From NCBI RefSeq assembly GCF_003018255.1, contig NZ_CP027440.1: 64,000 nucleotides of DNA; one strand, written 5' to 3'. The notes under the pieces are model-generated. The model was not told the origin of the DNA, did not search any database, and saw only the letters and a program-made list of their open reading frames with translations. The position numbers were made by a program, and so were the translations under genes. Each line of letters opens with the position of its first letter. Position 1 is the stretch's first letter. Source of the stretch: Escherichia coli. Lineage in GTDB: Bacteria; Pseudomonadota; Gammaproteobacteria; Enterobacterales; Enterobacteriaceae. Positions 3,555 through 55,934 of this stretch are shown here, in pieces.

Positions 3555-3710
3555 CGTTGCACTCCTCAACTGGTGTTTTTTTAAGCAAAGCATAAGCGCG
3601 TGTTTTTGCCCAGTTTTTCGTCACTCTGTGAGCCAGACTACGGGATACGCGCTGGCGAATCGCTAAACTAGAAACATTGTTTCGAAATTGAACGATGGAA
3701 AGGAGAGGTC

Positions 3711-19294: not shown

Positions 19295-21553
19295 TTACTC
19301 TTCGCTATCACCGCTGCTGGCACGGCGAGGAGAGTCGATCTCAACACGATCGATACGCTGCAAACCGCGCATCAACGTACCGCGGCGTCCACGTTCGCCA
19401 GCGACTTTCTGTAGCTCTTCCGGACGCAGTTTAATTTTGCGTTTCCCAACATGAATGGTCAGCGTGCTTTGCGGCGGCAGAACGTACAGTTGCGCAAGAC
19501 CATCCTCGCCACGCGCGGCTTCTGCCGATGGAATGTTGATAATCTTGTTGCCTTTGCCCTTCGACAGCTGCGGCAGATCGCTTACCGGGAACATCAACAT
19601 ACGGCCTGCCTGAGTGATTGCCAGCAGCATATCGGAAGCATCTTCAATCACCACCGGCGGCATAACATGGGCATTTTCCGGTAAGGTGATCAAAGCCTTA
19701 CCTGCACGGTTACGCGCCACCAGATCGTTAAAGGTGCAGACGAAACCGTAACCCGCATCGGAAGCCATCAGCAGTTTCTGATCGTCGCTTTCCATCAGCA
19801 TATGGTCAACGGTCGCTCCAGGCGGCAACGTTAATTTGCCGGTGAGCGGCTCACCCTGACCACGCGCCGACGGCAGCGTAATCGGGTCGATGGCATAGCT
19901 ACGACCGGTGGAATCAACAAACACTACCGGTTGGTTGCTCTTACCTTTCACCGCCGCTTTGAAGCTATCGCCCGCTTTATAATTCAGGCCCGGCGCGTCA
20001 ATATCATGGCCTTTAGCGCTGCGCACCCAGCCCATCTGCGACAGCACAATGGTGACAGGTTCAGACGGCAGCATGTCGTGCTCGCTCATTGCTTTCGCTT
20101 CTTCGCGTTCCTGCAACGGCGAACGACGTTCGTCACCGTAGGCTTGCGCGTCTGCCTGCAGTTCTTTCTTCAGCAGGTTATTCATTTTACGCTCGGAAGC
20201 CAAAATGCCCTGCAACTGGTCGCGCTCTTTTTCCAGCTCACTCTGCTCACCGCGAATCTTCATCTCTTCCAGTTTGGCAAGATGACGCAGTTTCAGTTCG
20301 AGGATCGCTTCCGCCTGGGTTTCAGTAAGGCCAAACCGCGACATCAGCGCCGGTTTCGGTTCATCTTCATTACGAATGATCTCAATCACTTCGTCGATAT
20401 TGAGAAACGCCACCAGCAAACCTTCGAGGATATGCAGGCGCTTGAGGACTTTCTCCAGACGATAGTTCAGTCGGCGGCGCACGGTATCGCGGCGGAACAC
20501 CAGCCATTCGGAGAGGATTTCCAGCAGGTTTTTCACCGCCGGACGACCATCCAGACCGATCATATTGAGGTTAATGCGATAGCTCTTTTCCAGATCGGTG
20601 GTAGCAAAGAGGTGGTTCATCACCTGATCCATATCCACGCGGTTGGAACGCGGCACAATCACCAGACGGGTCGGGTTCTCGTGGTCAGATTCATCGCGCA
20701 GATCGTCAACCATCGGCAGCTTTTTGTTGCGCATTTGCGCAGCAATTTGCTCCAGTACGCGCGCACCTGAAACCTGATGCGGCAATGCGCTGATAACCAC
20801 CGCGCCATCTTCTTTCTTCCAAACCGCGCGCATACGCACTGAACCACGTCCGTTCTCGTAGATTTTACGAATCTCGGCGCGCGAAGTGATAATTTCCGCT
20901 TCAGTCGGATAATCCGGCCCCTGCACGATATCCAGCAGCTGATCGAGCGTGGTTTTCGGCTGGTCGATTAATGCGATTGCCGCCTGAGCCACTTCACGCA
21001 GGTTATGCGGTGGAATATCGGTCGCCATGCCGACGGCAATACCGGTGGTGCCGTTAAGCAAAATGTTTGGCAGACGGGCAGGCAGCATTTTCGGCTCCTG
21101 CAAAGTGCCGTCGAAGTTTGGCACCCAGTCAGCCGTCCCCTGCCCCAGCTCGCTCAATAGCAGCTCGGAATATTTCGACAACCGGGATTCGGTGTAACGC
21201 ATTGCCGCGAACGATTTCGGATCGTCCGGCGCGCCCCAGTTCCCCTGACCATCAACCAGCGGATAACGGTAAGAGAACGGCTGCGCCATCAGGACCATCG
21301 CTTCATAACAGGCACTATCGCCGTGCGGATGGTATTTACCCAGTACGTCACCGACGGTACGGGCCGATTTTTTAAATTTGGCGCTGGCATTCAGGCCCAG
21401 CTCAGACATCGCATACACAATGCGGCGCTGAACAGGTTTCAGACCATCACCAATAAACGGCAACGCACGGTCCATGATCACGTACATGGAGTAGTTTAAG
21501 TAGGCGTTTTCCGTAAATTCATGTAGCGCAAGGCGCTCTGCCATATCGCTCAT
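19295..21553 (-). CDS. parC: DNA topoisomerase IV subunit A ParC (752 aa)
   Basis: ORF track 752 aa; GyrA/ParC family; recognised sequence. Confidence 0.97.
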
Positions 21554-21690
21554 TAATTCTGATTCCTCAACTTATTCGCCAGCCTTCAAAGGGGCAATAT
21601 TGCCGGAGATACTACATTATCTGCCGCGTCGAGTCACAGGAGATCAGCGTGAATAGCGCCGCCGGACGTGCTCCGGCGGCGATAAAGGCA

Positions 21691-23298
21691 TCAATGTGCC
21701 TTGATATACAACTCTTTGCTGTAGACATAATCCTGGGGATTATGCAGCGGAAAACCGCCAACGTAGGGTTTAAGCAGTTTGATTAACGGCTGATAGTAGA
21801 TGGGAATCAGCGGTGCCTGCTGGTTGATGATCACTTCTGCCTGCTGATACAACGCATTACGCTTTGTCGCATCAGTGATCTGCGTGGCCTGGTTTAGTAA
21901 GGCGTCATACTGCGCATTTTTCCAGTGACCGACGTTTTCTTCACTATCGCTTTTGAGCGTGTTCAGGAAGCTGGAGGCATCATTGTACGTCGCATCCCAC
22001 GACTGCCGAGACAGCATAAAATCACCGGCTCGTCGGGCATCAAGATAGGTTTTCCACTCCATTGTGCGCAGCGTCACCTGTGCACCCAGCCATTTTTTCC
22101 ATTCGGAAGACAACGCTATCGCGGTCTTTTCATGCAGATCGTACTTGTTGTAGAACAGCTCAAAGCGTAGCGGATGAGAGGCGTCGTATCCCGCCTGTTT
22201 CAGCAAGGCTTTTGCCATCGCGACACGCTCACTCATTGGCTTTTGCAGTTCATCGAACGTCGTCGCGCTAAAGCCTTTTACCTCTGGCGGCGTCAGCGTG
22301 GTTGCGGGCGTTCTCAACCCCAGTACCTTTTGCGCAATAAGCTGTCGATCAACCGTAAGATATAGCGCCCGACGCACCCGCACATCGTTAAATGGCGGTT
22401 TCTCAAGGTTAAAGTTGTAATATTCGCTGTTCAGACGCGGGATAATTCGTAGCTCGCCAGGCAGTGATTTTTCAATGGCGGGAATTTGCTGCGCCGGAAC
22501 CCAGGTGAGATCGACCTCTCCCGCGCGATAGCGGTTATAGCCGGTGACCGAATTATCCAGCGCCAGATACTCAACCTGTTGCAATACCGTATGTTGCGCA
22601 TCGCGGTACTTTGGATTTTTGCGTGCGGTAATCTTTTCGTTAACTACCCATTTATCAAGCACAAAGGCACCGTTGTAAACCATGTTCTCTGGCTTACTCC
22701 AGCTATCGCCATGTTTAGCGATGACATGATGAGGAACCGGGAACAACGTCGGCCAGGCGAGCATCGTCGTAAACCAAGGAACTGGCTGCTCAAGCGTAAC
22801 TTCAAGAGTACGATCATCCGTCGCTTTGATCCCCAGCGATGTAACATCTGCTTTACCCGCAACAATAGCCGCGGCATTGTTAATGTGCGCCTGTGCCAGA
22901 TAGCCAGCAAAAGGGCTTGCCGTTTTCGGGTCAACCGCACGTTGCCAGCCGAGGACAAAATCCTCTGCCGTCAGAGGCTGACCGTCTGACCACTGCAAAC
23001 CGCTACGCAGATGGAAAATATAGCGCTTGCCGCCGTCAAGTATCTCCCAGCGTTCAGCCTGAGCGGGCTGCACCTGGCCTTCACCGTCCATCCATACCAG
23101 ACCTTCAAACAGATCCAGCACAATCTGCGCGGCAGTATTCTCCTCTACCTTTTGCGGGTCGAGCGTGCCTGGGTCGCTATGATTGTTGTAACGAAAGACT
23201 TGTTGCGGGGCGAGCGGTGTGTTGGCGGGAACGTCAGCAGCGTAGAGAGGAGCCGCACTTACCAGGCTGACCAGCCATAATAAATTTCGCGTATACAT
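21691..23298 (-). CDS. ygiS: Periplasmic oligopeptide-binding-like protein YgiS (535 aa)
   Basis: Track ORF 556 aa; start set at MYTRNLLWLVSLVSAAPLYA (signal peptide) matching known YgiS; ABC substrate-binding family 5. Confidence 0.9.
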   Translation of the reverse strand: MYTRNLLWLVSLVSAAPLYAADVPANTPLAPQQVFRYNNHSDPGTLDPQKVEENTAAQIVLDLFEGLVWMDGEGQVQPAQAERWEILDGGKRYIFHLRSGLQWSDGQPLTAEDFVLGWQRAVDPKTASPFAGYLAQAHINNAAAIVAGKADVTSLGIKATDDRTLEVTLEQPVPWFTTMLAWPTLFPVPHHVIAKHGDSWSKPENMVYNGAFVLDKWVVNEKITARKNPKYRDAQHTVLQQVEYLALDNSVTGYNRYRAGEVDLTWVPAQQIPAIEKSLPGELRIIPRLNSEYYNFNLEKPPFNDVRVRRALYLTVDRQLIAQKVLGLRTPATTLTPPEVKGFSATTFDELQKPMSERVAMAKALLKQAGYDASHPLRFELFYNKYDLHEKTAIALSSEWKKWLGAQVTLRTMEWKTYLDARRAGDFMLSRQSWDATYNDASSFLNTLKSDSEENVGHWKNAQYDALLNQATQITDATKRNALYQQAEVIINQQAPLIPIYYQPLIKLLKPYVGGFPLHNPQDYVYSKELYIKAH

Positions 23299-23406
23299 GG
23301 TATTCCTTACCGGAGAAATTATAAGCCCGACAACAATACGCCTGTGGCATTGTTTGCTCAAACTTATCGCGAGTGATTTGGCTCACACTCCGGTAAAGAT
23401 TCCCCA

Positions 23407-23889
23407 TCACGCCAACGGCACATAAATATCCGTTTCCAGTCGCCGCTCTGTCATCCCTTCGGCAAGATTGGTGTAGTGAAACAGGATCGGGGCTTTGCGC
23501 ATTTTTTCGCCGCTTGCAGGTAGCCAGTGGCGAATGATGCCCCATATCGTGTGTGAAATATCGTCCAGCTCGCCAACATGGCGGGCAACAGCATAACGCC
23601 CACCGGTAAGTTCGCCATTACTCACGCCATAACGATTATCGGGGATCGGTTCGCTAACGCTGCCGCAGATATCAAAGCGAAACGCTTCTGGTGCGGTGGT
23701 GGCTGGGTCGTCCCAGGCGACGCCAAAAGTCTGGCTTTGGTTAACAGGAGAAAGCCCCGTCTCTTTACGCCACATGATAAATTTCGCCACGCTGTAGTTG
23801 AGCAACTCAGGGCTACAGCGGTGCGGCAACATCGCCACAGGGATTGATGGGAAATCGATAATATTTACATCCAGTGTCAGGTTTGTCAT
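23407..23889 (-). CDS. ygiV: GyrI-like domain transcriptional-regulator-related protein YgiV (160 aa)
   Basis: ORF track 160 aa; recognised sequence. Confidence 0.88.
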   Translation of the reverse strand: MTNLTLDVNIIDFPSIPVAMLPHRCSPELLNYSVAKFIMWRKETGLSPVNQSQTFGVAWDDPATTAPEAFRFDICGSVSEPIPDNRYGVSNGELTGGRYAVARHVGELDDISHTIWGIIRHWLPASGEKMRKAPILFHYTNLAEGMTERRLETDIYVPLA

Positions 23890-23941
23890 TTTGCCTCCCT
23901 GCGAAATTATTCCCGGGAACGCGTCCCGGGAGCGGTAACAA

Positions 23942-24334
23942 TTACGGATTTACTTTGCGGATCTGTTTGACGTCAATTTCAACAGAGTTCCAGTCTTTAT
24001 CGACTTCACCCTGAATCTCAACTGTATCTTTCGGCGTCACCGTCACGCCGTTCCAGCGTTTGTGGTCGATATCAACATTGATAGTACCGCTGGCATCTTT
24101 GAACACGTAGAGATCGTCAGAGATGCGTTCAACGATATTGCCGCGCAGGGTTACCCAGGTGTCGTCACGCAGGGATTTTGCGCTTTCTACGGTCGTTACG
24201 CTGCCGTTCGGCCCCTGGAATCCTCCGGCCTGACTTTGCGTTGCCGATGGGCCAGAAAAACCGCCCTGCTCTGCTGCCATCACCGGTGCGCTGCACAGGG
24301 CCATTACTGCGATTACTGCTGCGAATTTTTTCAT
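23942..24334 (-). CDS. ygiW: BOF (OB-fold) periplasmic stress protein YgiW (130 aa)
   Basis: Track ORF 149 aa; start set at MKKFAAVIAVMALCSAPVMA signal peptide matching known YgiW. Confidence 0.88.
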   Translation of the reverse strand: MKKFAAVIAVMALCSAPVMAAEQGGFSGPSATQSQAGGFQGPNGSVTTVESAKSLRDDTWVTLRGNIVERISDDLYVFKDASGTINVDIDHKRWNGVTVTPKDTVEIQGEVDKDWNSVEIDVKQIRKVNP

Positions 24335-26538: not shown

Positions 26539-26869
26539 AATAGCAAAATATAAACCGTCCCCAAAAAAGCCACCAACCACAACCCAGACAAATAACGAGC
26601 GAGAATACATATAGCCAAAACTCGAACATTTCCCGCATAAAGAGTTTTCTTAAGATAAGAATAATAAGTGGTGTCAGAAGAAAAAATGCTGCAATCATTG
26701 CTTGCAATATACGATCTTCGCCTGAAACAGAAGGTATACTGCAAATATTGTCTCCCGACTCAAGCATCCAGTCATACTTATTGAAAGCAAAAAAAGAATC
26801 TATTAACCAATAAGTAAGCATTATATATAATAGTGCTTCAAATATTGATAGTAGTTGTTTTTTTAACAT
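26537..26869 (-). CDS. ygiZ: Small inner-membrane protein YgiZ (110 aa, about 3 TM segments); here the third gene of the hcp module
   Basis: ORF track 110 aa; hydrophobic segments; ATG lies 6 nt after the stop of the upstream 236-aa gene; AT-rich like the insert. Confidence 0.85.
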   Translation of the reverse strand: MLKKQLLSIFEALLYIMLTYWLIDSFFAFNKYDWMLESGDNICSIPSVSGEDRILQAMIAAFFLLTPLIILILRKLFMREMFEFWLYVFSLVICLGCGWWLFWGRFIFCY

Positions 26870-26875
26870 ATCTGA

Positions 26876-27586
26876 TTACTCATTAATCAATTTTTTGATA
26901 TGTTCTCTAATCTCTAACAACCTCATACCATAAGAGATGAATTTATAATCATCTGTATCACGCGCAGGCAAATTATTAATTAAACAAATAAAAAAGCCCA
27001 AATCTCGTTCAACACCACGATTATATCTAATACCAGCCATAATATACTGCTCATTCGTCATATACAGTGTTGCCGAAGAGGGATAATCAAAAAGGACAAG
27101 ATCTCTTAAATAAGTAGCAGCAATTTGAAAGGTAAAATCATCCTCCATTAGGCATGTCGCTAACTCTAACTGATTTCTGGTAGTTAATTCTGAAGGGTCT
27201 AGACCTAGAGTAATCGCTGCGGTTCGTATTTGTATACCCATTGAGCCAAATGATGTTTTATTTTCAGGCATATCTAACAATCCCATCATTCTTTTTGTTT
27301 CATATATCTGAAACTTATAATTTTCAGGCATACCTCCTGACTCAATCCAGGCCACGCCGCCCAGTAACTCTGGACGAATTCCAGCGGCGTATGCATGTTT
27401 AATTATTTTGTCTCTATTATATTGTACATATGCATCTTTATAAGCATTTAAATAATATACTCCTGAACGGCGACGCGAATCATTTTTTCCTAACTTCCAG
27501 AGTAAAACGTCCATTTCATCCCATTTACGGAACTTCGCTTGTGGAATTGTACAATATCTATTTTTTATAGTGAGATCGCTTTTCAT
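26876..27586 (-). CDS. Hypothetical protein (236 aa from ATG; track ORF extends to a TTG at 27613); possible lysozyme-like / lytic-transglycosylase-like T6SS cargo
   Basis: ATG begins 2 nt after the hcp stop; no signal peptide; contains V-x3-E-S-x3-P (VAWIESGGMP) followed by GSMGIQIRTAAITLGL and IRYNRG, reminiscent of SLT-domain motifs (ES...GLMQ...AYNxG). The family assignment is inference only. Confidence 0.6.
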   Translation of the reverse strand: MKSDLTIKNRYCTIPQAKFRKWDEMDVLLWKLGKNDSRRRSGVYYLNAYKDAYVQYNRDKIIKHAYAAGIRPELLGGVAWIESGGMPENYKFQIYETKRMMGLLDMPENKTSFGSMGIQIRTAAITLGLDPSELTTRNQLELATCLMEDDFTFQIAATYLRDLVLFDYPSSATLYMTNEQYIMAGIRYNRGVERDLGFFICLINNLPARDTDDYKFISYGMRLLEIREHIKKLINE

Positions 27587-27588
27587 AT

Positions 27589-28068
27589 TTAAAAAATCCT
27601 TTCTTCCCAACAACTATATGATTCCGTACTCGCGATATGGTGCTTCCATGTTATATTTTTATAATTAAGAACAATGACCTCTTCCGGCTGATTACCCGCA
27701 TGTGTAATTGAGTGTGGATAACATGTCAGAATATTCGATAAATGTGCTCCTTGCAATTCAATTGTGTAAAACCTTTCAATACAACCGCCAGAATTAACTC
27801 TATAAAAATTAAATACAGCTGATAACTCTTCATTTTCAGAAAGAGCGGCATTTAATAAAGGGGAGGATTTATCTATTGGCTTGTAAAATTTTATGGGGTG
27901 ATGCACTACATTATACTCTCGACTTAAAGAATGGTCGAACTGTAAAACAAAAATTTCATCCACATGATTTATTTGATATTTATTACCAATAGATGCATAC
28001 GAACCACAACCCTCAGAGATCAAACCTTGTATTTTCCCTTTAATTGATAAGTATATGATATTTGACAT
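27589..28068 (-). CDS. hcp: Hcp family type VI secretion tube/effector-carrier protein (159 aa), orphan copy
   Basis: 159 aa, typical Hcp size; blocks HPIKFYKPIDKSSPLL and LNYKNITWKH...SYSCWEER align with canonical Hcp motifs (TPFxFTKEIDxSSPxL, ITWTY...SWNER); GGAG Shine-Dalgarno upstream of ATG; no other T6SS structural gene in the window. Confidence 0.85.
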   Translation of the reverse strand: MSNIIYLSIKGKIQGLISEGCGSYASIGNKYQINHVDEIFVLQFDHSLSREYNVVHHPIKFYKPIDKSSPLLNAALSENEELSAVFNFYRVNSGGCIERFYTIELQGAHLSNILTCYPHSITHAGNQPEEVIVLNYKNITWKHHIASTESYSCWEERIF

Positions 28069-28317
28069 ATATATTCTCCATAATCATTTTTTCCGAAAAA
28101 CTCCTGTATCATTTGCATAATACATCTCTCCTGTGGGAGCTTATGGGAAGTTGATTTAAGTATTGTCATTTTCAGAAAATATTTATCCCGCATCGGTGAA
28201 TCAGAGAAAGATCAGACTTTTGCTAAATTCGCAAAAGACTTTGCACATTTTGCTAATTTCACCGTACCGCTCTGTGACGTACTATAGTCGGCAAACGTCT
28301 CACCTTGAGGTTAAAAA

Positions 28318-28929: not shown

Positions 28930-29244
28930 ATGATTACAGTAATCGCAGAAATCCGTACTCGTCCTGGTCAACATCACCGTCAGGCAGTGTTGGATCAGTT
29001 TGCTAAAATCGTTCCAACCGTACTGAAAGAAGAAGGTTGCCACGGCTATGCGCCAATGGTGGATTGCGCTGCTGGCGTGAGTTTCCAGTCTATGGCACCG
29101 GATTCTATCGTGATGATTGAGCAGTGGGAAAGCATCGCGCATCTTGAAGCGCATCTGCAAACCCCGCACATGAAAGCATATAGCGAAGCCGTAAAAGGTG
29201 ACGTGCTGGAGATGAATATTCGTATCCTGCAGCCGGGGCTTTGA
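28930..29244 (+). CDS. ygiN: Quinol monooxygenase YgiN (104 aa)
   Basis: ORF track 104 aa; ABM-domain sequence recognised. Confidence 0.93.
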   Translation: MITVIAEIRTRPGQHHRQAVLDQFAKIVPTVLKEEGCHGYAPMVDCAAGVSFQSMAPDSIVMIEQWESIAHLEAHLQTPHMKAYSEAVKGDVLEMNIRILQPGL

Positions 29245-29288
29245 CATTTCTAAAAAGAGGCCGGTGCTGCTACCGGTCTCAGCCCAGA

Positions 29289-30176
29289 TTAGCCATTCTT
29301 TCTTCCCGTTTTCAGTCCTCGATGGAAATCGTTAATTCGCTTAATGGTTTTAACCGCACGCTGCGGCACTGCGGAAGCTACCGACCAGACAATCATTTCC
29401 AGACACAACAATACCGTACCATGTAGCGGCGTTTTCCCTTTTTCATCCCCGCGCGGAACATGAATCACGATACTGGCGTCTTTGCTAAAACGTGAATCCA
29501 GCGCGTTTGTCAGCAAAATAACAGGGATCCCTAGCCGCCTCGCCTCACGAAGCGTTGTCAGCCCTTCCCGGTGCGCTGATTTTTGCGCCATCATGATCAG
29601 AACATCGCCACGTTGAAGCGCGATCAGTTGCTCGGCAAGGCCAATACCCGTACGGTTTAGTGCCGTGGCAGGCAAACCTATGCGGTTGAATAGTCGTGCG
29701 GTATAGTCCGCCAGAATACCCGAAGCGCCAATGCCAAAAATTGCGACTTGCCGTGCCTGCACCAACAACGCTACAGCTTGCGCAAGCGCGTGGCGGTTTT
29801 CAGGCTCTGACAGGACATTACAGGTATACAAATGCCCTTCAAGAACAAAGTCGATTGCGGTGTTAACATCGCTCGTCAAGTTACTCACCGTCGTAGACAT
29901 CTTTTCGCTGGAACTAAGGGCTGGACCAAGCCACTGTTCCAGAGTGCGTTTCAGATCACGCAGCCCGGCAAACCCCAGGGCCTGTATAGCCCTGATAACT
30001 GTGGCATCGGAAGTGTTCAACGTGGCCGCAATTTCCATCGCCGTTTGCTCGAGTACCACTTCACGATGCTCATTAATGTAGCTGGCGACAACTCTTAACC
30101 CAGGCGTTAACTGACTCGCGCGAGTGCGAAAACGCTCACCAAAAATATCAACCCGCACTTTATCTTTCTGGATCAT
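29289..30176 (-). CDS. RpiR/MurR-family transcriptional regulator (HTH_6 plus SIS domain), 295 aa
   Basis: N-terminal RpiR-type HTH (TSDATVIRAIQALGFAGLRDLK) and C-terminal SIS domain; the start ATG overlaps the stop of the upstream substrate-binding gene in an ATGA arrangement. Confidence 0.82.
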   Translation of the reverse strand: MIQKDKVRVDIFGERFRTRASQLTPGLRVVASYINEHREVVLEQTAMEIAATLNTSDATVIRAIQALGFAGLRDLKRTLEQWLGPALSSSEKMSTTVSNLTSDVNTAIDFVLEGHLYTCNVLSEPENRHALAQAVALLVQARQVAIFGIGASGILADYTARLFNRIGLPATALNRTGIGLAEQLIALQRGDVLIMMAQKSAHREGLTTLREARRLGIPVILLTNALDSRFSKDASIVIHVPRGDEKGKTPLHGTVLLCLEMIVWSVASAVPQRAVKTIKRINDFHRGLKTGRKNG

Positions 30177-31120
30177 TTAGCCTCCGGTAGAGGTCGCCCT
30201 GCAATTTGTGATTGTATCTGCGCAGCCATCAGCCCCAGAGATGCAAAGGAGTTAGAAATTGCCTCTTCACGAGAAATCAGCACATAACGCCCGGAACGAC
30301 AGGCAGTCAGAAACTGACACCATCCCGGCATGACTTTTTCCATTGCTGCCAGCTCATCCTGAGGTTTACCACCGGTGTCACCGCGCCAGGTTGCAAAAAC
30401 AAAATCGGCATCCAGTTCAGGTAAACGCTCCGCGCTCACATCCATTCGCCCACCTTCAGGAATGCTCTCAATCAGCGGCGGAAAACGAAAACCCGCATCG
30501 CGTAATACCCGCCCCAGCGAATGATAGCTATGCATCACATTAATTTTTCCCTGGTTTGCCTGAATCACCGATACCGTTATTTTTTGGCTGTCCAGCGTCG
30601 CCTTCAGCGCATTGATTTGTGCCTGATAGCGGCGTTCAAGTATCGCCAGCTGCGACTGCGTTCCTGTAAGTCCTGCCAGCTTGCGATAGATTTCTGGCGC
30701 ACCCCCTTTGAGATGATCAATGCTCACCGTGGGCGCAATTTTTTCAAGTTGTTCAATGGGCGTATTACGGGTCGGTTCTGTGATGATCAGGTCAGGCTTT
30801 GCCGCCACAATCGCTTCAATATCAATATCAGCGGTACCAATAAAGGCGATCGATGAATTATCAAAGTCGACACCTGTCAATAACGCGCCAGATCGAATGA
30901 AATGGCTACCGTCAGGCCGAGTTCGCCCGTGGCTGGCGACAGGAGGTACACCGAGCTCAATCAGAGGAATAGTGATATCAAGATCGTGTAAAGAGACAAT
31001 TCTCTTTGGATGAGCAGGAACAGTGACTTTGCGCCCTAAATCATCAGTAAATACCTGAACAGGTTCTGTTGCACGGGAAAAAAATGACAACAGTATCAGC
31101 AGAGAAAAAAATAAACGCAT
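30173..31120 (-). CDS. Periplasmic iron-siderophore/cobalamin-type ABC substrate-binding protein (FecB/FhuD-like), about 315 aa
   Basis: Start set at MRLFFSLLILLSFFSRA signal peptide with GGGAG Shine-Dalgarno (track ORF extends to 31183); class III binding-protein-like sequence; operon context with FecCD permeases. Confidence 0.82.
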   Translation of the reverse strand: MRLFFSLLILLSFFSRATEPVQVFTDDLGRKVTVPAHPKRIVSLHDLDITIPLIELGVPPVASHGRTRPDGSHFIRSGALLTGVDFDNSSIAFIGTADIDIEAIVAAKPDLIITEPTRNTPIEQLEKIAPTVSIDHLKGGAPEIYRKLAGLTGTQSQLAILERRYQAQINALKATLDSQKITVSVIQANQGKINVMHSYHSLGRVLRDAGFRFPPLIESIPEGGRMDVSAERLPELDADFVFATWRGDTGGKPQDELAAMEKVMPGWCQFLTACRSGRYVLISREEAISNSFASLGLMAAQIQSQIAGRPLPEAK

Positions 31121-31130
31121 ATAACTCCCG

Positions 31131-32180
31131 TTAAAAACTGTTCCTGCGCTGCCAGAGCAGTAGCAAAAAAAATGGTCCACCAATCAGTGAGATAATGATT
31201 CCGGCAGGCAGTTGCAAAGGCAAAAAAGCCAAACGACCAATGCTATCCGCCAGAATAACTAACAACGCCCCCGATACCGCGCTCCCCAGCAGTAATGTCG
31301 TCTGCCCGCCACGTAGAATAAAACGTGATATATGGGGTGCTATCAATCCGACAAAACCGATGTTACCAACACACGAAACGCAGACGGCTGTCAGGATTAT
31401 TGGTGCGGCGACACGTAACAACGCCAGACGAGAACTATTCACCCCTAACCCGGTTGCAACCTGATGACCAAGCAGAGCGATATCCGCCGTCCTGGCGGTG
31501 AACAGCAATAAAAGAGCGGCTGGCAACATCCAACAGGCTGAAATACCGACTAACATCCAGTTAGCTGCATGCAGGCTTCCCGATAACCACATCAATGCAG
31601 TTTGTACATCTCGAACATCTGCAGTGGTCATAAATACACCGATACCGGCGGCGAAAAACCAGGAAACACCAATACCAATCAGAACAAATCGCGGGCGGGA
31701 AATATCGCGCGCACAAAAAATCACGATTAAAGCCACCAACAAGCCACCAGCAAGACCAGCCACTGGACGCCAGAACATTCCCAGCATTGGAAACTGGAAA
31801 ATCAGCCACAGCACCGCCACGCTACATCCTTCTTTGACGCCGATTAAACCAGGATCGGCAAGGCCGTTACGCGCAATGGATTGCATCGCGGCCCCCGCCA
31901 TACCTAACATGGCTCCGCATAGCAATGCCATGATGACTCTCGGCAAGCGAATATCCTGCACAATATAACGTGCGTCTGTGCTTACGTTTTCTGGAGCAAA
32001 CAACGCTCGTCCTACTTCCGATGCCGGGACAGAAAAAGAACCCTGCATCAGACCGAATATCAGTATTCCAACCGCAAACAGAAACAGCCCACCAAGCAAC
32101 AGCAGATTTTTAGGGCGTACCAGTGTCGAAAACTTACCAACACGTAGTGGGCGTAGCCCGACGTTCATTATCCGACTCAT
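31131..32180 (-). CDS. FecCD-family ABC permease (349 aa)
   Basis: Polytopic membrane protein; FecCD/BtuC-type sequence; start overlaps the upstream permease stop. Confidence 0.85.
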   Translation of the reverse strand: MSRIMNVGLRPLRVGKFSTLVRPKNLLLLGGLFLFAVGILIFGLMQGSFSVPASEVGRALFAPENVSTDARYIVQDIRLPRVIMALLCGAMLGMAGAAMQSIARNGLADPGLIGVKEGCSVAVLWLIFQFPMLGMFWRPVAGLAGGLLVALIVIFCARDISRPRFVLIGIGVSWFFAAGIGVFMTTADVRDVQTALMWLSGSLHAANWMLVGISACWMLPAALLLLFTARTADIALLGHQVATGLGVNSSRLALLRVAAPIILTAVCVSCVGNIGFVGLIAPHISRFILRGGQTTLLLGSAVSGALLVILADSIGRLAFLPLQLPAGIIISLIGGPFFLLLLWQRRNSF

Positions 32181-33160
32181 TTGAACATCCTCGTCGCCAT
32201 AATGACAAAAACAGGCGCACCAACTAACGCCGTCATGACACCGGTCGCTAACTCATGGGGCGTGAAAAGCGTCCGGGCAATAATATCTGCCAGTAATAAC
32301 AAAAGTGCGCCGACACAAGCTGAAAGAGGGAGCAGAACGCGCAGATCCGCTGATACCAGACGCCGGACAATCTGCGGTACCAACAGGCCGACAAAACCAA
32401 TGGGGCCAGCAATCGATACGGCTGCGCCACAGAGCAACGCGATCGCAAGCAGGGTAAATGTTCGCGTGCGGAGTACAGAGACGCCCAGCCCCTGCGCCAT
32501 GCGATCGCCCAGTGCCAACATGTTAAGGTAGGGTGCAAGGTAAAGGGCTAACACAAATCCCCCCAGAGAAAACCAGGCGGACGTACCCAGCGTCGCCCAA
32601 TCCTGCCCCGCTAAATCACCTGCTAGCCATGTCCGCATCGCCAGCAGTGTTTGTTCGTCAAGAATCAGGATTGCAGCCGTTATTGAGGACACGAACGCCG
32701 ATAGCGCCACGCCGCATAAAGTAACTTTCATTGGCGTTACCCCTGAACGCCCTGCGGAGGAAAGCAGCAATATCAACAGGAACAATAACGCGCCCCCCGT
32801 AGATGCCAGCAGTGGGCGTCCAACCGGAAAGGCCAGTCCAAGCGCACTGGCGGCAACGACAGCAAGAGCGGCTCCGGCATTTAAGCCTAAAATATGTGGC
32901 TCCCCCAATGGGTTACGAATGACAGCCTGCAACAAAGCACCAGCAACACCAAGAGAAGCACCGGTAAGCAATGCTGCCGCTAAACGCGGCAAACGGAGTC
33001 TTACAATTACGTTGTGATCGAAGTTTTGCGGATCAAAATGAAGAAATGCCTGCAACACCGTTTGTGGTGCAATAAATCGGGCACCAATCCCTGGATATAC
33101 CACGCATCCCACCAGCAGTAAGGCGAGGAAAATTACAGTAACCAGCCCTGTGCGCATCAT
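32177..33160 (-). CDS. FecCD-family ABC permease (327 aa)
   Basis: Polytopic membrane protein paralogous to the adjacent permease; start overlaps the ATPase stop. Confidence 0.85.
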   Translation of the reverse strand: MMRTGLVTVIFLALLLVGCVVYPGIGARFIAPQTVLQAFLHFDPQNFDHNVIVRLRLPRLAAALLTGASLGVAGALLQAVIRNPLGEPHILGLNAGAALAVVAASALGLAFPVGRPLLASTGGALLFLLILLLSSAGRSGVTPMKVTLCGVALSAFVSSITAAILILDEQTLLAMRTWLAGDLAGQDWATLGTSAWFSLGGFVLALYLAPYLNMLALGDRMAQGLGVSVLRTRTFTLLAIALLCGAAVSIAGPIGFVGLLVPQIVRRLVSADLRVLLPLSACVGALLLLLADIIARTLFTPHELATGVMTALVGAPVFVIMATRMFK

Positions 33161-33966
33161 ACTTTTTCTACACCACGAAACGGCATGAAGAACGGCTTTC
33201 CCGTCAGAGGATTTATTGATGCGTGAACATCAACGTCAAAGACAGCTTTTACCAGCTCAGGCGTGCAATGCTCCCCCTCATTCAACACACGCACCACTTT
33301 CCCCTGGCGTAAAAATATCAACGTATCGCCATAATTGACGGCAAAATTCAGATCATGCAACACCACGACGACTGTACGCCCGTGATGACGCGTTAAATCA
33401 TGTAATAACTCAAGAATTTCAACCTGATAACGTAAATCAAGCCAGGTTGTGGGTTCATCCAGCAGGATATAAGGCGTCTTTTGCGCCAACACCATCGCAA
33501 TCCAGCAACGCTGGCGCTGCCCACCAGAGAGTTTTTCAACAGGTAAATGTGCAAACTCCTGCGTACCGGTTAATTTCAGGGCCTCTTCCACCGCCTGCTC
33601 ATCGGCGTCGCTCCATTGACGTATGAAATTTTGCCAGGGAAAACGCCCACGCGACACCAGTTCATAAACGGTTAAGCCCTCCGGCAATAATGGCGACTGC
33701 GGCAAGATCCCAAGTCTACGGGATAACGCTTTCGTTGGTTGCTCGTGAATCGCTTTGCCATCAAGCAATATCGAACCGCCCATAGGTTGCAAGATACGTG
33801 CAATGGTGCTGAGCAACGTCGACTTTCCACAGCCGTTTGCCCCAACCAGAACGGTCATTTTTTCTGTGGGAACGGAGAAAGAAACACCATCAACAATGAT
33901 CTTCTTGTGATACCCGGCAGAAACATTGTCGAGGATCAGCCCCTGCCCTTTTGCGTTATGTGCCAC
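33157..33966 (-). CDS. ABC transporter ATP-binding protein (FecE/FhuC-like), 269 aa
   Basis: Walker A GANGCGKST, ABC signature LSGGQRQR, Walker B ILLDEPT; GTG start. Confidence 0.88.
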   Translation of the reverse strand: MAHNAKGQGLILDNVSAGYHKKIIVDGVSFSVPTEKMTVLVGANGCGKSTLLSTIARILQPMGGSILLDGKAIHEQPTKALSRRLGILPQSPLLPEGLTVYELVSRGRFPWQNFIRQWSDADEQAVEEALKLTGTQEFAHLPVEKLSGGQRQRCWIAMVLAQKTPYILLDEPTTWLDLRYQVEILELLHDLTRHHGRTVVVVLHDLNFAVNYGDTLIFLRQGKVVRVLNEGEHCTPELVKAVFDVDVHASINPLTGKPFFMPFRGVEKV

Positions 33967-34220
33967 GTGTACGCCAACTTAATCAAAGACAAACAAAAAT
34001 AAAACTCATTCTCCTTTGAGAGTTTGACGCCACAAAATGTAGTAGTCAAGCAGTTAAAAGCCACACAAAAACAAGGTAAATAACAGGTAAAATATTTTTA
34101 TACATAAAAATAAAAACATTAAATATCAATAAATTAAAAGCAATCAAATTGTATAAGCCTTTCATAAAAACACATGTAGCAATTTTTTGTTATTTCTCAT
34201 TTACTACTACATTACTGCGT

Positions 34221-34240
34221 GATTGAATGATTCTCAATTA
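34221..34240 (+). promoter_or_regulatory. Putative Fur-box-like element upstream of the TonB-dependent receptor gene
   Basis: gattgaatgattctcaatta partially matches the Fur consensus, about 100 nt upstream of the receptor start within an AT-rich divergent promoter region; weak. Confidence 0.3.
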
Positions 34241-34339
34241 CATATCCGATGGCGAAATAACAAACGGATAGTGCTTAGTGAGCAATAAGAAACAATTTTC
34301 ACTCGCGACAATCCGCGAGTTTTTGGGATAACAGACTAA

Positions 34340-36481
34340 ATGGCTATGTTCACACCTTCATTCTCAGGACTCAAAGGTCGGGCGCTCTTTTCACTGCTTT
34401 TTGCGGCACCGATGATTCATGCAACAGACTCTGTAACGACCAAAGATGGCGAAACAATCACTGTTACAGCAGATGCAAATACCGCAACTGAGGCAACCGA
34501 TGGTTATCAACCTCTGAGCACCTCCACGGCGACATTAACCGATATGCCGATGCTGGATATCCCGCAGGTGGTCAATACGGTTAGCGATCAGGTTCTGGAA
34601 AACCAGAATGCGACGACGCTGGATGAGGCGCTTTATAACGTCAGTAACGTGGTACAGACCAATACATTAGGCGGGACTCAGGATGCTTTTGTACGCCGTG
34701 GGTTTGGCGCAAACCGGGATGGCTCCATCATGACCAACGGTCTGCGAACCGTACTTCCTCGCAGTTTCAACGCCGCCACAGAACGTGTGGAAGTGCTAAA
34801 AGGCCCGGCCTCCACGCTGTATGGCATTCTCGATCCTGGCGGACTGATTAACGTCGTGACCAAGCGCCCGGAAAAAACATTCCATGGTTCGGTTTCAGCC
34901 ACCTCCTCCAGTTTTGGTGGCGGCACTGGGCAACTTGATATCACAGGTCCCATTGAAGGCACTCAGCTGGCGTATCGCCTTACCGGGGAAGTGCAGGATG
35001 AAGATTACTGGCGAAACTTCGGTAAAGAGCGCAGTACATTTATTGCCCCGTCACTCACCTGGTTTGGTGATAATGCAACAGTAACCATGCTCTATTCCCA
35101 TCGGGACTATAAAACTCCGTTCGATCGTGGAACGATTTTCGACCTTACGACGAAACAGCCCGTAAACGTTGATCGAAAAATACGTTTTGACGAACCGTTT
35201 AATATTACAGATGGTCAGTCCGATCTGGCGCAACTCAACGCAGAATATCATCTCAATAGCCAGTGGACAGCGCGCTTTGATTACAGCTACAGCCAGGATA
35301 AATACAGCGATAATCAGGCGCGTGTTACCGCGTATGATGCAACGACAGGAACACTGACACGGCGTGTTGATGCAACTCAGGGATCTACCCAGCGTATGCA
35401 TGCTACTCGTGCGGATCTGCAAGGGAATGTTGATATTGCCGGATTCTATAATGAGATTCTGGGTGGGGTGTCATATGAATATTATGATCTTCTGCGTACA
35501 GATATGATTCGCTGTAAAAAAGCTAAAGATTTCAATATCTACAACCCTGTTTATGGTAATACCAGCAAATGTACAACGGTTTCGGCGTCGGACAGTGATC
35601 AGACGATCAAACAGGAGAGCTACTCAGCGTATGCACAGGACGCACTCTATCTGACCGATAACTGGATTGCCGTCGCCGGGATCCGCTATCAGTATTACAC
35701 GCAGTATGCGGGTAAAGGCCGTCCTTTTAATGTCAATACTGACAGCCGCGATGAACAATGGACTCCCAAACTGGGGTTGGTCTACAAACTGACGCCATCG
35801 GTATCCTTATTTGCCAATTATTCGCAAACATTTATGCCGCAGTCGTCAATTGCCAGCTACATTGGCGATCTTCCACCGGAATCATCTAATGCTTACGAAG
35901 TCGGGGCAAAATTCGAGCTATTCGATGGTATCACCGCAGATATTGCGCTGTTTGATATCCATAAACGTAATGTGTTGTATACCGAAAGTGTTGGTGATGA
36001 AACCATTGCCAAAACGGCAGGCCGTGTTCGTTCAAGAGGGGTAGAAGTCGACCTTGCGGGAGCATTAACTGAAAACATTAATATCATTGCCAGCTACGGC
36101 TATACCGATGCTAAGGTTCTGGAAGATCCTGATTATGCAGGTAAACCATTGCCGAATGTTCCTCGTCATACCGGTTCGCTATTCCTGACCTATGACATTC
36201 ATAACATGCCTGGCAATAACACACTGACGTTTGGCGGTGGTGGACATGGCGTAAGCCGTCGTTCGGCAACCAATGGGGCTGACTATTATCTGCCAGGCTA
36301 TTTTGTTGCCGATGCCTTCGCCGCATACAAAATGAAATTGCAGTATCCGGTCACACTGCAATTAAACGTCAAAAACCTGTTTGATAAAACGTATTACACC
36401 TCTTCCATCGCCACAAATAATCTGGGGAATCAGATTGGCGATCCGCGTGAAGTGCAATTCACGGTGAAAATGGAATTTTGA
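34340..36481 (+). CDS. TonB-dependent outer-membrane siderophore-type receptor (713 aa)
   Basis: Signal peptide, TonB-box-like ETITVTA, plug and barrel sequence blocks, C-terminal aromatic residue (..VKMEF); divergent from the ABC importer operon (arrangement resembles fit-type iron uptake loci; symbol not assigned). Confidence 0.9.
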   Translation: MAMFTPSFSGLKGRALFSLLFAAPMIHATDSVTTKDGETITVTADANTATEATDGYQPLSTSTATLTDMPMLDIPQVVNTVSDQVLENQNATTLDEALYNVSNVVQTNTLGGTQDAFVRRGFGANRDGSIMTNGLRTVLPRSFNAATERVEVLKGPASTLYGILDPGGLINVVTKRPEKTFHGSVSATSSSFGGGTGQLDITGPIEGTQLAYRLTGEVQDEDYWRNFGKERSTFIAPSLTWFGDNATVTMLYSHRDYKTPFDRGTIFDLTTKQPVNVDRKIRFDEPFNITDGQSDLAQLNAEYHLNSQWTARFDYSYSQDKYSDNQARVTAYDATTGTLTRRVDATQGSTQRMHATRADLQGNVDIAGFYNEILGGVSYEYYDLLRTDMIRCKKAKDFNIYNPVYGNTSKCTTVSASDSDQTIKQESYSAYAQDALYLTDNWIAVAGIRYQYYTQYAGKGRPFNVNTDSRDEQWTPKLGLVYKLTPSVSLFANYSQTFMPQSSIASYIGDLPPESSNAYEVGAKFELFDGITADIALFDIHKRNVLYTESVGDETIAKTAGRVRSRGVEVDLAGALTENINIIASYGYTDAKVLEDPDYAGKPLPNVPRHTGSLFLTYDIHNMPGNNTLTFGGGGHGVSRRSATNGADYYLPGYFVADAFAAYKMKLQYPVTLQLNVKNLFDKTYYTSSIATNNLGNQIGDPREVQFTVKMEF

Positions 36482-36483
36482 TC

Positions 36484-36509
36484 AAAAAAGCCCGGTATGT
36501 TTACCGGGC
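36484..36509. terminator. Bidirectional terminator between receptor gene and GPH symporter gene
   Basis: Seen in sequence: A-run, then gcccggta-tgtt-taccgggc hairpin (T-run on the minus strand). Confidence 0.5.
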
Positions 36510-36588
36510 TGAGACTGATGACAAACTCCAAATTGTCTGATGCGCTACGCCCATCAGATCTACCATAGAAATTCAATATATTAAATTT

Positions 36589-37920
36589 TCATATATTTTT
36601 AGGCTGTAAACACACCTTAATCTGTTCGTAATATTCATTATTAATCAGATAAAATCTCATGATGAGTCCGGTAATCAGGTTAAGTATCGCGGGAATGATC
36701 GTCATTAACAGGCAGATCCCCCACAACGCCTGTGGTGTTTGTTCTACGCCAGGTTGATAGTCCATAAACGCTAAAGCGATTCCGATAAACCCTCCCGCCA
36801 GTCCCATACCAAACTTTTGAAAAAAGAGAATCCCGCCAAATGCCAGTCCAGAAACACGTTGCCCCGTTTTCATTTCACCATAATCCACTGACTCAGCAAT
36901 GGATGCCCAATAAATGGGAAGCTGAATATCAGTCAGAAAGGTCACCACAATATAAAATGTAAAAGCTAACACTATAGAATTTGGTTGCACGAAATACATC
37001 GCACCACCCACCACGAACGCCAGTAATTGGGTATAACGAAATATTTTTATTTTGTCGTAGAGTCGAGTAAGCCAGGTGCAAGCGATCATAGCCAGAACAG
37101 AGGCGATCACGCCTGAAGTTAAAAACGGTGAAATTAAAGCATCCCCACCATTCAGGTAATATTTTGCATAATATGCAGCGACAGAGTTACGAATAATCCC
37201 GCCAAACATAATGATCGCAATTACAGCGCCCAAAATGAGCCATTGATCATTTTTGATCAGTAACCGAAACTGCGCGGCCATACCGAGACTGGGTTTTGGA
37301 TGGTAGATGCGCTCTCTCACGCTAAAAAAACAATACAGGCATAAACACGTTGCCAGAATTCCCATTGCCCCCATTGCTATTTGATAACCCAGTTGTACGT
37401 TATTCTTCCCAAGATACATTGCAGATAAAGGAACAATAATTGTTACGGCGAACATGGCAATTTTTGTCATAACAAAACGATAACCATTGGCGCTCAATCG
37501 CTCTTGTGGATCATCCGTGATAACGCTGATTAATGAAACATAAGGAATAGCGATTAACGTATAGGTCAAGGTAAGTAACACATAGGTAGCCCAAGCCCAT
37601 AAAAGCTTAACTGAATAATCGGTATTAGGTGTGGTGAACATCAACCAAATGCTTATCCCAAACGGTATTGACATAAAAAGCAACCACGGCCGATATTTTC
37701 CCCAACGTGTATTCGTTCTGTCTGTCATTGTTCCCACAACTGGATCAATCACAGCATCAAGGATACGTACAGAAAATAACAGAATACCTAAGTCGACGGG
37801 TTTCAGACCAAATACATCCGTGTAAAAATAAGTGATGATCATGGCCAAAGACATCATTACTATCGCGATAGCCATATCACCAGCACCAAAACCTATCTTT
37901 TCATTTATTGTAAGTTTCAT
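36589..37920 (-). CDS. MFS/GPH-family glycoside-pentoside-hexuronide:cation symporter (about 443 aa)
   Basis: 12-TM-like hydrophobic profile with MelB/GPH-like N-terminal region (GFGAGDMA, DxxxDPxxG-like DAVIDPVVGTMTDR); start set at the ATG for MKLTINEK. Confidence 0.8.
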   Translation of the reverse strand: MKLTINEKIGFGAGDMAIAIVMMSLAMIITYFYTDVFGLKPVDLGILLFSVRILDAVIDPVVGTMTDRTNTRWGKYRPWLLFMSIPFGISIWLMFTTPNTDYSVKLLWAWATYVLLTLTYTLIAIPYVSLISVITDDPQERLSANGYRFVMTKIAMFAVTIIVPLSAMYLGKNNVQLGYQIAMGAMGILATCLCLYCFFSVRERIYHPKPSLGMAAQFRLLIKNDQWLILGAVIAIIMFGGIIRNSVAAYYAKYYLNGGDALISPFLTSGVIASVLAMIACTWLTRLYDKIKIFRYTQLLAFVVGGAMYFVQPNSIVLAFTFYIVVTFLTDIQLPIYWASIAESVDYGEMKTGQRVSGLAFGGILFFQKFGMGLAGGFIGIALAFMDYQPGVEQTPQALWGICLLMTIIPAILNLITGLIMRFYLINNEYYEQIKVCLQPKNI

Positions 37921-38206
37921 ACACAGCACTCATTGATTACGTGAACTTATATTAAAAACAAATATATCTGAACTCATTCAGCACATAACTTTACGAGTGA
38001 GCATAAATGCATTGGTTGATACCACAACAAACCATTGAGTCAATATTGAGCAACATCACATAAAAACCAATTTCACTTAATCTCATGATTTATATATTTA
38101 ATTGTGGTTTTTTCTGTTTTATGTCACAGATAGTGAACAAGCACCATGCGTAATAAAAGTTAAAGAATGTAGAGTTGGTATCAACCACTTGAAATGAGGC
38201 TTTGTC

Positions 38207-38959
38207 ATGATAAAAATTTATAAAGCCAGTAAAGGTCAGCTAAAGCATCGTGAAATCTTTGATGAAATAAAGAAAAAAGTAGATAACGGTGAATGGAAAG
38301 AAGGCAAAGCCATACCGACAGAAAGGGAATTGTCAGAATATTATTTAAGTAGCAGAACAACTATTCGAAAGGCAATAGAAAGTCTTAAACAACGCGGCTA
38401 CCTGCATAGTGTCCACGGGCAAGGAACATTTGTATTGCCTTCTCGTAGTAGAGAAAATCATTTATTGCATAGTTTTACCGACGATATTAAAGCTCGAGGT
38501 GGTATACCAGCACAGAATATTCTTGAGATAGGCTATGTTCCTGTCAGTGATGTTATCAGAAAAAATCTCGACCTGGATATCCATATCCAAACCGTATTCT
38601 GTATAAAACGCGTTCGCTATATGGGAAGTACCCCCCTGGGTATTCAGACATCATGGCTTGCATTAAATGACAGGCAAGAAATAACCCAAGAAGATCTGCT
38701 GGCGACGGGTTCGCTCTATATTTTACTGGAAGAAAAACTCGCTATTAAACCTTTAGAAGCAACAGAAATTATCTCTGCCCGGCTTCCCTCGCCCCTTGAG
38801 CGTCAATTACTGGAACTGACTGCCGATGATGTCGTATTAAGTTGTACCCGCGTCACGTTATCCGTGGAACGCAAACCAATGGAGTATGTAGAGATGGTGT
38901 ATCCCGCAAGCCGGTACTCCTACAAAGCACGAATTACAAAAGACAGTTTTAGCGTGTAA
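38207..38959 (+). CDS. GntR/HutC-family transcriptional regulator with UTRA effector domain (250 aa)
   Basis: N-terminal GntR winged HTH (PTERELSEYYLSSRTTIRKAIESL) and a C-terminal domain of UTRA length. Confidence 0.85.
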   Translation: MIKIYKASKGQLKHREIFDEIKKKVDNGEWKEGKAIPTERELSEYYLSSRTTIRKAIESLKQRGYLHSVHGQGTFVLPSRSRENHLLHSFTDDIKARGGIPAQNILEIGYVPVSDVIRKNLDLDIHIQTVFCIKRVRYMGSTPLGIQTSWLALNDRQEITQEDLLATGSLYILLEEKLAIKPLEATEIISARLPSPLERQLLELTADDVVLSCTRVTLSVERKPMEYVEMVYPASRYSYKARITKDSFSV

Positions 38960-38972
38960 CAGAGAGAATATT

Positions 38973-40049
38973 GTGAACAAAATAGAACAAGCTGTAATTT
39001 ATAACAAAATATTAGGTTCTTTAGCCTGCGCAGGTATGGGCGATGCATTAGGCGCAGCGACTGAACTCTACAGCATTGATGAAATAAAAGCTCAATGGGG
39101 AGGTTTTTTAAATGCCTTTGTTTCTCCTCCTGCCGATACATTCGCTGGCTCATTAAATGGTATTGCGGGACTTATCACCGACGATTCCAGCCAAATGTAT
39201 GTGTTTTCAGAAGGGTTAATTGAGGCTGGATTTGATAACTTCACCAATAATGACTGGTTAGCTTGTCTTCTGCGTTGGGCCGATATGCAGCCCTACGCAA
39301 ATTATAAAGGCCCCACAACAGAACAAATCGTCAAGGCACTAAAAGAAGGTAGACCAACAAACACCATTGGGCGTATTGGAACATCTTCTCGTCAGGCACC
39401 CAATGTCGGCACCACGAATGGAGCAGGAATGCGTGTAGCCCCTGCAGGATTGATCTGGCCAGGCAAGAAAGAAAAAGCGTGTCACCTGGCGCTAATAACT
39501 TGCCTACCTTCGCATGACACCAATATTGCGATTGCCAGCGCTTGCGCCATCGCTGCGGCGACATCACAAGCTATGTTACCAGAAGCTTCGCTCACATCAT
39601 TACTGGACGCCGCAATCTGGGGAGCGAATTACGGCGAACGCCTGGCCAAACAATATGCACGATGTGTCGCAGGGCCATCTATCGCCATGCGCATCCAACT
39701 TGCAGCGGACATCGCCAGACGAGCCAATGACCTGGAGTCTTGTCTGCGAGAAATGGAAGGTTTGGTTGGTAACTCTGTTGCCGCCCATGAATCCATTCCT
39801 GCGGCAATCGGTCTATTGCTGTACTGCAAAGGAGAACCCTGGGAAACCATTCATGCCTGCGCCAATATTGGCAATGACACCGATAGCATCGCTACGATGG
39901 CAGGCGCAATTGCAGGGGCATGGCGCGGTTTTGATGCGCTCCCTGAAGATAAATATGCCTTTTTCCGCGCCGTAAATAATAAAGATTTCGATATTGAAGC
40001 GATCGCATCGGGTCTGACATTGCTTGCATTAGAGGCACAGGAGAAATAA
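38973..40049 (+). CDS. ADP-ribosylglycohydrolase (ARH/DraG) family protein (358 aa)
   Basis: N-terminal GSLACAGMGDALGAATE and C-terminal NIGNDTDSIATMAGAIAGAW blocks match the two conserved ARH-family metal-binding regions. Confidence 0.8.
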   Translation: MNKIEQAVIYNKILGSLACAGMGDALGAATELYSIDEIKAQWGGFLNAFVSPPADTFAGSLNGIAGLITDDSSQMYVFSEGLIEAGFDNFTNNDWLACLLRWADMQPYANYKGPTTEQIVKALKEGRPTNTIGRIGTSSRQAPNVGTTNGAGMRVAPAGLIWPGKKEKACHLALITCLPSHDTNIAIASACAIAAATSQAMLPEASLTSLLDAAIWGANYGERLAKQYARCVAGPSIAMRIQLAADIARRANDLESCLREMEGLVGNSVAAHESIPAAIGLLLYCKGEPWETIHACANIGNDTDSIATMAGAIAGAWRGFDALPEDKYAFFRAVNNKDFDIEAIASGLTLLALEAQEK

Positions 40050-41047: not shown

Positions 41048-41051
41048 GACT

Positions 41052-41966: not shown

Positions 41967-41993
41967 AATCATATATATACAAAGGTAAATATC

Positions 41994-43118: not shown

Positions 43119-43213
43119 AGTCAAACTATAGATACAAAAACATTCTAATACATGGAATCATCAGATGGTGTATTCGATCACCAAAAATATATTTTATTCT
43201 GAAAGGGAATATT

Positions 43214-43948: not shown

Positions 43949-43961
43949 TCTGGAATAAAAA

Positions 43962-44831: not shown

Positions 44832-44839
44832 TCAACGAC

Positions 44840-44868
44840 AACCCGGCAAAACACATGTTTGCCGGGTT
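44840..44868. terminator. Hairpin between the island's last gene and parE
   Basis: Seen in sequence: aacccggcaaa-acacatg-tttgccgggtt, 11-bp perfect stem; no strong T-run. Confidence 0.4.
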
Positions 44869-44875
44869 AAGATTA

Positions 44876-46771
<1,896 letters not shown>

Positions 46772-52953: not shown

Positions 52954-53437
52954 TACAGCTTAATATTGCCCCGATAAGCGGGGCAATCTCTTATAATCCA
53001 CCATTCATAATTCCCATCAATATATAAACACATACATATCCAACCTTTATTTAACATTAATACTCAATTTAATGTTAAATCGTCATATGCAAGCGATATT
53101 GTAATTAAAGTAAGTGAATACATCACAACATAACTATTTGATATTATTTAAATACTTTACTTTCATTTCACCAGATTTAAATTTAATAATTCAAAAACAA
53201 TGTTGCAGGGATCACACTACACAGTATTGAACATTGTGATTGATATATTGCCCCCCTACTATCCATTAAACATAAATATTTGTTTCACCGAATAACAACA
53301 TATTTAAAAGAAACACAAAAGCATTCTCACTCTTTATTGAATTAATATTTATATTCACGTAACGAATTTATTAGCACCCTCTCAACAGTCGATATTCATC
53401 ATTATTATATATTTGCGTTATATAAGGAGATATATCC

Positions 53438-55234: not shown

Positions 55235-55251
55235 TTAAGAAGGGAATAAAA

Positions 55252-55920: not shown

Positions 55921-55934
55921 CAGGGAAACAGGCT

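Follow-up and report, generated by a model that had tools for sequence, protein, structure and literature searches.

The 108-bp ygiV-ygiS spacer of an Escherichia coli chromosome is probably an ancestral, never-occupied site for the mqsRA toxin-antitoxin cassette

In a 64,000-nucleotide stretch of the Escherichia coli contig NZ_CP027440.1 (assembly GCF_003018255.1), hereafter called the window, only 108 bp lie between the genes ygiS and ygiV, and the mqsR-mqsA toxin-antitoxin (TA) pair that occupies this interval in K-12 is missing. Comparisons with other E. coli genomes and with other members of the genus make it very probable that this short spacer represents the ancestral form of a site that was never occupied, and that a lineage including K-12 and B gained mqsRA horizontally as a self-contained cassette of 927 bp.

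Both genes that border the spacer are intact. The gene ygiS (21691-23298, minus strand) encodes a periplasmic ABC-transporter substrate-binding protein of 535 amino acids, which matches the NCBIfam equivalog NF007287 end to end over its 535 residues with a score of 1291.7 bits (cutoff 1098). The gene ygiV (23407-23889, minus strand), taken from the list of open reading frames, encodes a GyrI-like/AraC effector-binding-domain protein of 160 amino acids; its product gives a weak SbmC/GyrI-like match, and the gene is annotated as ygiV in RefSeq genomes. Because the start codon of ygiS (CAT on the plus strand, 23296-23298) ends at 23298 and the stop codon of ygiV (TGA on the minus strand, 23407-23409) begins at 23407, the spacer at 23299-23406 is exactly 108 bp long. 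The neighbors of the two genes in the window are parC, ygiW, qseB, and qseC. In strain JNE112863 (NZ_AP045072.1), which is collinear with the window (142 mismatches and no indels over the first 50 kb), RefSeq annotates ygiS and ygiV at identical coordinates.

As a K-12-type reference we used the chromosome NZ_CP026347.1 (L001), in which the gene order is parC-ygiS-mqsA-mqsR-ygiV-ygiW-qseBC. Two K-12 derivatives, XL10-Gold and J53, match L001 at 100% identity throughout the locus. In this arrangement, 1030 bp separate the start of ygiS from the stop of ygiV. They hold mqsA and mqsR, flanked by spacers of 204 bp (ygiV-mqsR) and 132 bp (mqsA-ygiS), which is the ygiV-mqsR-mqsA-ygiS layout, with the same two spacer lengths, that is tabulated in Table 1 of PMC5120126. 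The flanking genes and their order and orientation are shared with the window, and the alignment consists of two gapless blocks: window 21402-23399 with L001 1103-3100 at 98.5% identity, and window 23405-24000 with L001 4028-4623 at 96.1% identity. Between these blocks, L001 has 927 bp (3101-4027), whereas the window has the 5 bp TTCCC (23400-23404), as defined by the blastn breakpoints and the printed junctions. The insertion point thus lies 2 bp away from the stop codon of ygiV. On its other side, the K-12 locus shares with the window the 101 bp directly upstream of ygiS. In contrast, mqsR, mqsA, two operator palindromes, and terminator-like hairpins are found only in K-12.

The window carries no recognizable trace of the cassette. 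Searches of all six frames of the 64 kb with K-12-type proteins (tblastn) returned no open reading frame for MqsR, of about 98 amino acids (best E value 0.86 over 19 residues), and none for MqsA, a zinc-finger and helix-turn-helix protein of about 131 amino acids (best E value 1.6). The 108-bp spacer is in any case too short to hold an MqsR reading frame. When the 927-bp cassette itself was compared with the 64 kb by blastn at word size 7, only chance-level matches were obtained, and the spacer reads without any ACCT or AGGT, the half-sites of the MqsA operator (ACCT-N-AGGT type). An earlier note on this DNA, made from sequence alone, had put roughly 108 bp between the ygiS start and the ygiV stop, had stated that K-12 carries mqsR-mqsA there, and had concluded that the strain has an empty site for this TA system. 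The length proves to be exact, the statement on K-12 is borne out by L001, XL10-Gold, and J53, and the alignment with the K-12 interval that the note had proposed upholds the empty site through its sharp breakpoints, with gapless flanks, 5 bp opposite 927 bp, and no homologue in the interval. Because the interval holds no mqsRA and the K-12 spacer is not similarly short, the finding stands. The one refinement supported by our comparisons is that "absent" would here mean never acquired rather than lost.

The spacer retains what appears to be an undisturbed control region for ygiS. Direct reading of the minus strand reveals a perfect TATAAT hexamer (23318-23323) located 19 nt upstream of the ygiS ATG, followed by the Shine-Dalgarno sequence AAGGA (23304-23308). 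The hexamer, which we regard as the putative -10 element of a ygiS promoter, is kept in the window, in strain M1, and in the loci L005, L007, and L008, and occurs in empty as well as occupied alleles; for K-12, Table 1 of PMC5120126 likewise lists a putative promoter in front of ygiS. Between the ygiV stop and this -10 element lies an inverted repeat, AACAATGCCACAGGCGTATTGTT (23332-23354, minus strand), that can be drawn as a hairpin. It overlaps a terminator-like scan match at 23350-23338, whose counterpart in L001 is at 3051-3039, and its sequence does not vary among the five genomes with a retained 5′ end of ygiS. This hairpin may be a weak terminator-like or operator-like element. The hexamer, the AAGGA sequence, and the hairpin all fall within the 101 bp held in common with K-12.

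The direction of change is indicated by the outgroups. A pattern-limited scan for YgiV in one genome per species recovered five other Escherichia loci and none outside the genus, and no matches to MqsA or MqsR were found in any of the five. The ygiV-ygiS spacer is 108 bp in E. albertii, 107 bp in E. whittamii, and 107 bp in L005, a divergent genome labeled E. coli whose YgiV is 93% identical. All three spacers can be aligned with that of the window straight through the insertion point, and the bases missing in K-12 are present in them; these read GGGAA, GGGA, or GGAAT (minus strand) at the positions equivalent to 23400-23404. The same arrangement, with a spacer of 107-108 bp and no mqsRA, is shared by the window, E. 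albertii NBRC 107761, E. whittamii Sa2BVA5, E. coli Nissle 1917, and O157:H7, and the junctions of these genomes differ from that of the window by a few substitutions and a 1-bp length difference near the insertion point. Because the outgroups have a homologous, uninterrupted spacer, the empty site of the window is best read as ancestral rather than as the product of a deletion, with mqsRA as the derived insertion. The two other loci, L004 and L006, have a decayed ygiS and also lack mqsRA. Their ygiS fragments, at L004 5553-5922 (MOD1-EC7003) and L006 3713-4140 (E1V33), derive from differing internal deletions, so that the genus has seen several independent losses of ygiS.

The K-12-type insertion has the composition of a complete unit. 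It comprises mqsR, whose product is an mRNA-cleaving RNase toxin according to the reviews cited here, and mqsA, along with two ACCTAAAAGGTTA operator palindromes at L001 3856-3872 and 3888-3904, both inside the cassette, and a promoter-like site within mqsR. A terminator-like hairpin is located in the cassette 41-59 nt past the ygiV stop, and direct reading shows a GC-rich hairpin followed by a T-run just after mqsA, where PMC5120126 places a terminator. The G+C content of the cassette is 41.1%, compared with 52-53% for ygiS, ygiV, and ygiW. No direct or inverted repeats involving both cassette boundaries (L001 3101 and 4027) were found, nor was there a target-site duplication at the junctions. 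Given its gene content, its low G+C content, and its repeat-free ends, the cassette resembles a self-contained module of foreign origin, acquired through illegitimate recombination. A transposon, an insertion sequence (IS), or an integrase-borne element was also considered as the vehicle and was rejected, as terminal repeats, an att-like repeat, and a target-site duplication are all lacking.

Based on these features, we propose that the cassette was inserted by nonhomologous (illegitimate) recombination 2 bp beyond the stop codon of ygiV, with replacement of 5 bp. It would have brought its own autoregulated promoter with the two MqsA operator palindromes, an internal promoter-like site for mqsA, a terminator downstream of mqsA, and, for ygiV, a new terminator-like hairpin, while the promoter region of ygiS would have been left untouched. 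The strain represented by the window would accordingly produce neither the MqsR toxin nor the MqsA repressor from this locus, and its native ygiS control region would directly follow ygiV.

No donor with a near-identical cassette was identified, and the source and the mechanism of insertion are therefore inferred. The phage genomes searched contained no match to the cassette. In the plasmid collection, MqsRA-family pairs with 66-73% nucleotide identity were present on plasmids of Rahnella, Rouxiella, Pectobacterium, and Yersinia, and the collection also includes two E. coli records with identity of at least 99.8%, one a 4.9-Mb record and the other a 354-kb plasmid. The pairs from these four genera establish that the MqsRA family is plasmid-borne in Enterobacterales, and name no donor.

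A set of 5,426 complete E. coli genomes was searched for mqsRA by blastn at word size 11. Coding DNA for mqsRA is present anywhere in the genome in 2,298 of them (42%). Every copy in this set is chromosomal and at least 99% identical, and nearly all are located at the ygiS-ygiV site; the full ygiS-mqsA-mqsR-ygiV arrangement is found in 2,284 genomes. Since ygiS and ygiV are both present, with or without mqsRA, in 4,013 genomes, about 1,730 (4,013 minus 2,284) share the state of the window. By strain name only, K-12, B, and H10407 are occupied, and Nissle and O157:H7 are empty. The genomes closest to the window are three human isolates with 100% identity (NZ_AP045072.1, NZ_AP045067.1, and NZ_CM128590.1), and A0 34/86 and an ST80 isolate are among those that come next, at about 99%. 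Depending on the genome, the flanks are 95-100% identical to the window, and they differ by up to 3-4% between genomes, compared with an identity of at least 99% for all cassette copies. This degree of identity implies a recent arrival, and the very low diversity of the cassette is the one observation that points to a single acquisition followed by vertical descent and recombination. IS-associated variants of the locus occur in a few dozen genomes. For example, MB20 (L003 3764-6101) has an IS30 at a deletion that begins in the 5′ portion of ygiS and reaches into ygiV, and in HUM3355 mqsR is interrupted by IS1.

A third allele, in which a filler of 242 bp separates parC from ygiV, is carried by strain M1, O111, O103:H2, and others, amounting to 1,357 of the 5,426 genomes (25%). 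It shares with the window the empty mqsRA junction, AAAGATTCCCCATCAC, as well as the ygiS promoter region and the first 22 bp of ygiS. However, nearly all of ygiS, which is intact in the window, is replaced: the segment equivalent to window 21727-23276 consists of 242 bp of unrelated, noncoding sequence (L002 5759-6000 in strain M1). The first approximately 135 bp of the filler are 83-86% similar to unannotated plasmid DNA adjoining IS1 or sopA. The filler was also considered as the 5′ end of a group II intron, as its minus strand starts with GTGCG, and this candidate was dropped after no Rfam match was obtained at E ≤ 1.

One might speculate that the parC-ygiV interval is a small hotspot in which the ancestral ygiS-ygiV arrangement has been repeatedly and independently remodeled, with recurrent selection acting on ygiS, and that mqsRA has been kept because it lies directly upstream of ygiS. 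The changes that this reading would unite are the capture of mqsRA (42%), the replacement of ygiS by the 242-bp fragment that resembles mobile-element-associated plasmid DNA (25%), and the decay of ygiS in two other Escherichia lineages. The gene ygiS is reported to promote deoxycholate import. We nevertheless regard this reading as rather unlikely.

Several alternatives to an ancestral empty site were weighed. The lineage of the window might once have had mqsRA and lost the pair through a precise deletion. TA loci are generally known to decay or vanish in some lineages, with the decay of ccdO157 being an example cited in PMC7167474, and IS damage at this very locus occurs, as in HUM3355 and MB20. 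However, the junction, including the 5 bp TTCCC, is homologous to those of E. albertii, E. whittamii, and L005, and a deletion could not recreate these bases. Moreover, the window retains no cassette remnant, precise excision could not have been driven by flanking repeats, of which the cassette has none, and the uniformity of all mqsRA copies speaks for their recent arrival. We therefore judge secondary loss to be extremely unlikely, and on the strength of the aligned outgroup junctions it appears effectively refuted. An assembly artefact, in which collapse or a mis-join would have produced the short spacer, is practically inconceivable, because three independent complete genomes match the stretch at 100%, the arrangement recurs in about 1,730 complete genomes, and the empty junction is seen in about 1,360 others.

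A different possibility is that mqsRA, or a divergent MqsR/MqsA-family pair, resides elsewhere in the genome of this strain, either on the chromosome or on a plasmid. The window displays only 64 kb of that genome, MqsRA-family pairs do exist on enterobacterial plasmids, and 14 genomes contain mqsRA DNA but not the complete K-12 arrangement (2,298 versus 2,284). However, mqsRA in the 5,426 genomes is only chromosomal, at least 99% identical, and about as frequent as occupied sites. In the 3,128 genomes without the cassette, plasmids included, word-11 blastn found no match at approximately 65-70% nucleotide identity or better, and these genomes should include the three relatives that match the window at 100%. 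In addition, TA-finder detected no MqsRA homologue in a B2 strain (PMC7232551). A copy elsewhere is thus very unlikely, and the population data, which bear on the search of the remaining genome that the note had also proposed, suggest that this strain lacks mqsRA beyond the 64 kb as well.

MqsR/MqsA is among the most studied TA systems of K-12, and functions in biofilm formation, persistence, bile tolerance, and the control of rpoS and csgD have been ascribed to it. Because about 58% of complete E. coli genomes lack mqsRA, as do the other Escherichia species examined, none of these roles can be species-wide, and regulatory models from K-12 that include MqsR or MqsA do not apply to the strain analyzed here. 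The polymorphism itself is already known, since strain variation is documented in the literature, and it is an ordinary accessory-gene polymorphism. No TA system is common to MG1655, W, EDL933, and UTI89 (PMC7167474), and the same paper cites Fiedoruk et al. 2015 for an uneven distribution of TA systems among phylogroups and Ramisetty and Santhosh 2016 for the horizontal transfer of chromosomal TA systems. TA systems have been described as horizontally transferred units integrated beside core genes (PMC5120126), the B2 strain in which an MqsRA homologue is lacking is NRG857c (PMC7232551), mqsA, mqsR, and ygiS are listed among variable pan-genome genes (PMC11390585), and in PCR surveys of clinical isolates mqsRA is scored as present or absent (PMC11059956). 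The locus resembles ccdO157 and the K-12 TA set (PMC7167474, Fig. 1 legend; PMC5120126) in that some phylogroups have a small AT-rich TA cassette in an intergenic region between conserved core genes and a clean empty site is found in others. It differs in no principle from other chromosomal type II TA polymorphisms, of which mqsRA is one instance. What we add is minor, namely the exact breakpoints, the confirmation by outgroups, and the frequencies of the three alleles.

The empty mqsRA site is one ordinary item among at least five other presence/absence differences between the window and the K-12-type chromosome. Between ygiZ and mdaB, the window carries a 1.3-kb islet (26848-28140, 34% G+C) with genes for a type VI secretion protein of the Hcp family and for a hypothetical protein; at this position the K-12-type chromosome has an unrelated sequence of 163 bp. 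The interval between ygiN and parE contains a 15.6-kb island (29243-44879, 45% G+C), missing from the K-12-type chromosome, with genes for a siderophore ABC transporter, a TonB-dependent receptor, an MFS transporter, a GntR regulator, an ADP-ribosylglycohydrolase, a SIS-domain protein, a sugar kinase, and a porin. An insert between ygiC and ygiD (52954-56647) that is missing from K-12 encodes the aryl-sulfate sulfotransferase AssT (assT), dsbL, and dsbI; compared with strain JNE112863, dsbI (approximately 55935-56605) has here a 1-bp deletion near 56127 that splits it into two open reading frames, and it could be either a pseudogene or the result of a sequencing error.

A second empty site is formed by the 74 bp between ubiK and glgS (60103-60176), where the K-12-type chromosome has the 6.6-kb ygiL-yqiGHI fimbrial operon with an IS2. 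The two chromosomes also differ by 233 bp in an intergenic region. Within the region corresponding to window 12000-36000, relatives at about 99% identity (e.g., A0 34/86 and BH100) have an extra 7.7 kb, approximately, with a gene of the mannitol dehydrogenase family. Finally, yghX (2667-3554) is an intact open reading frame in the window, whereas the annotation of the K-12-type genome marks it as frameshifted.
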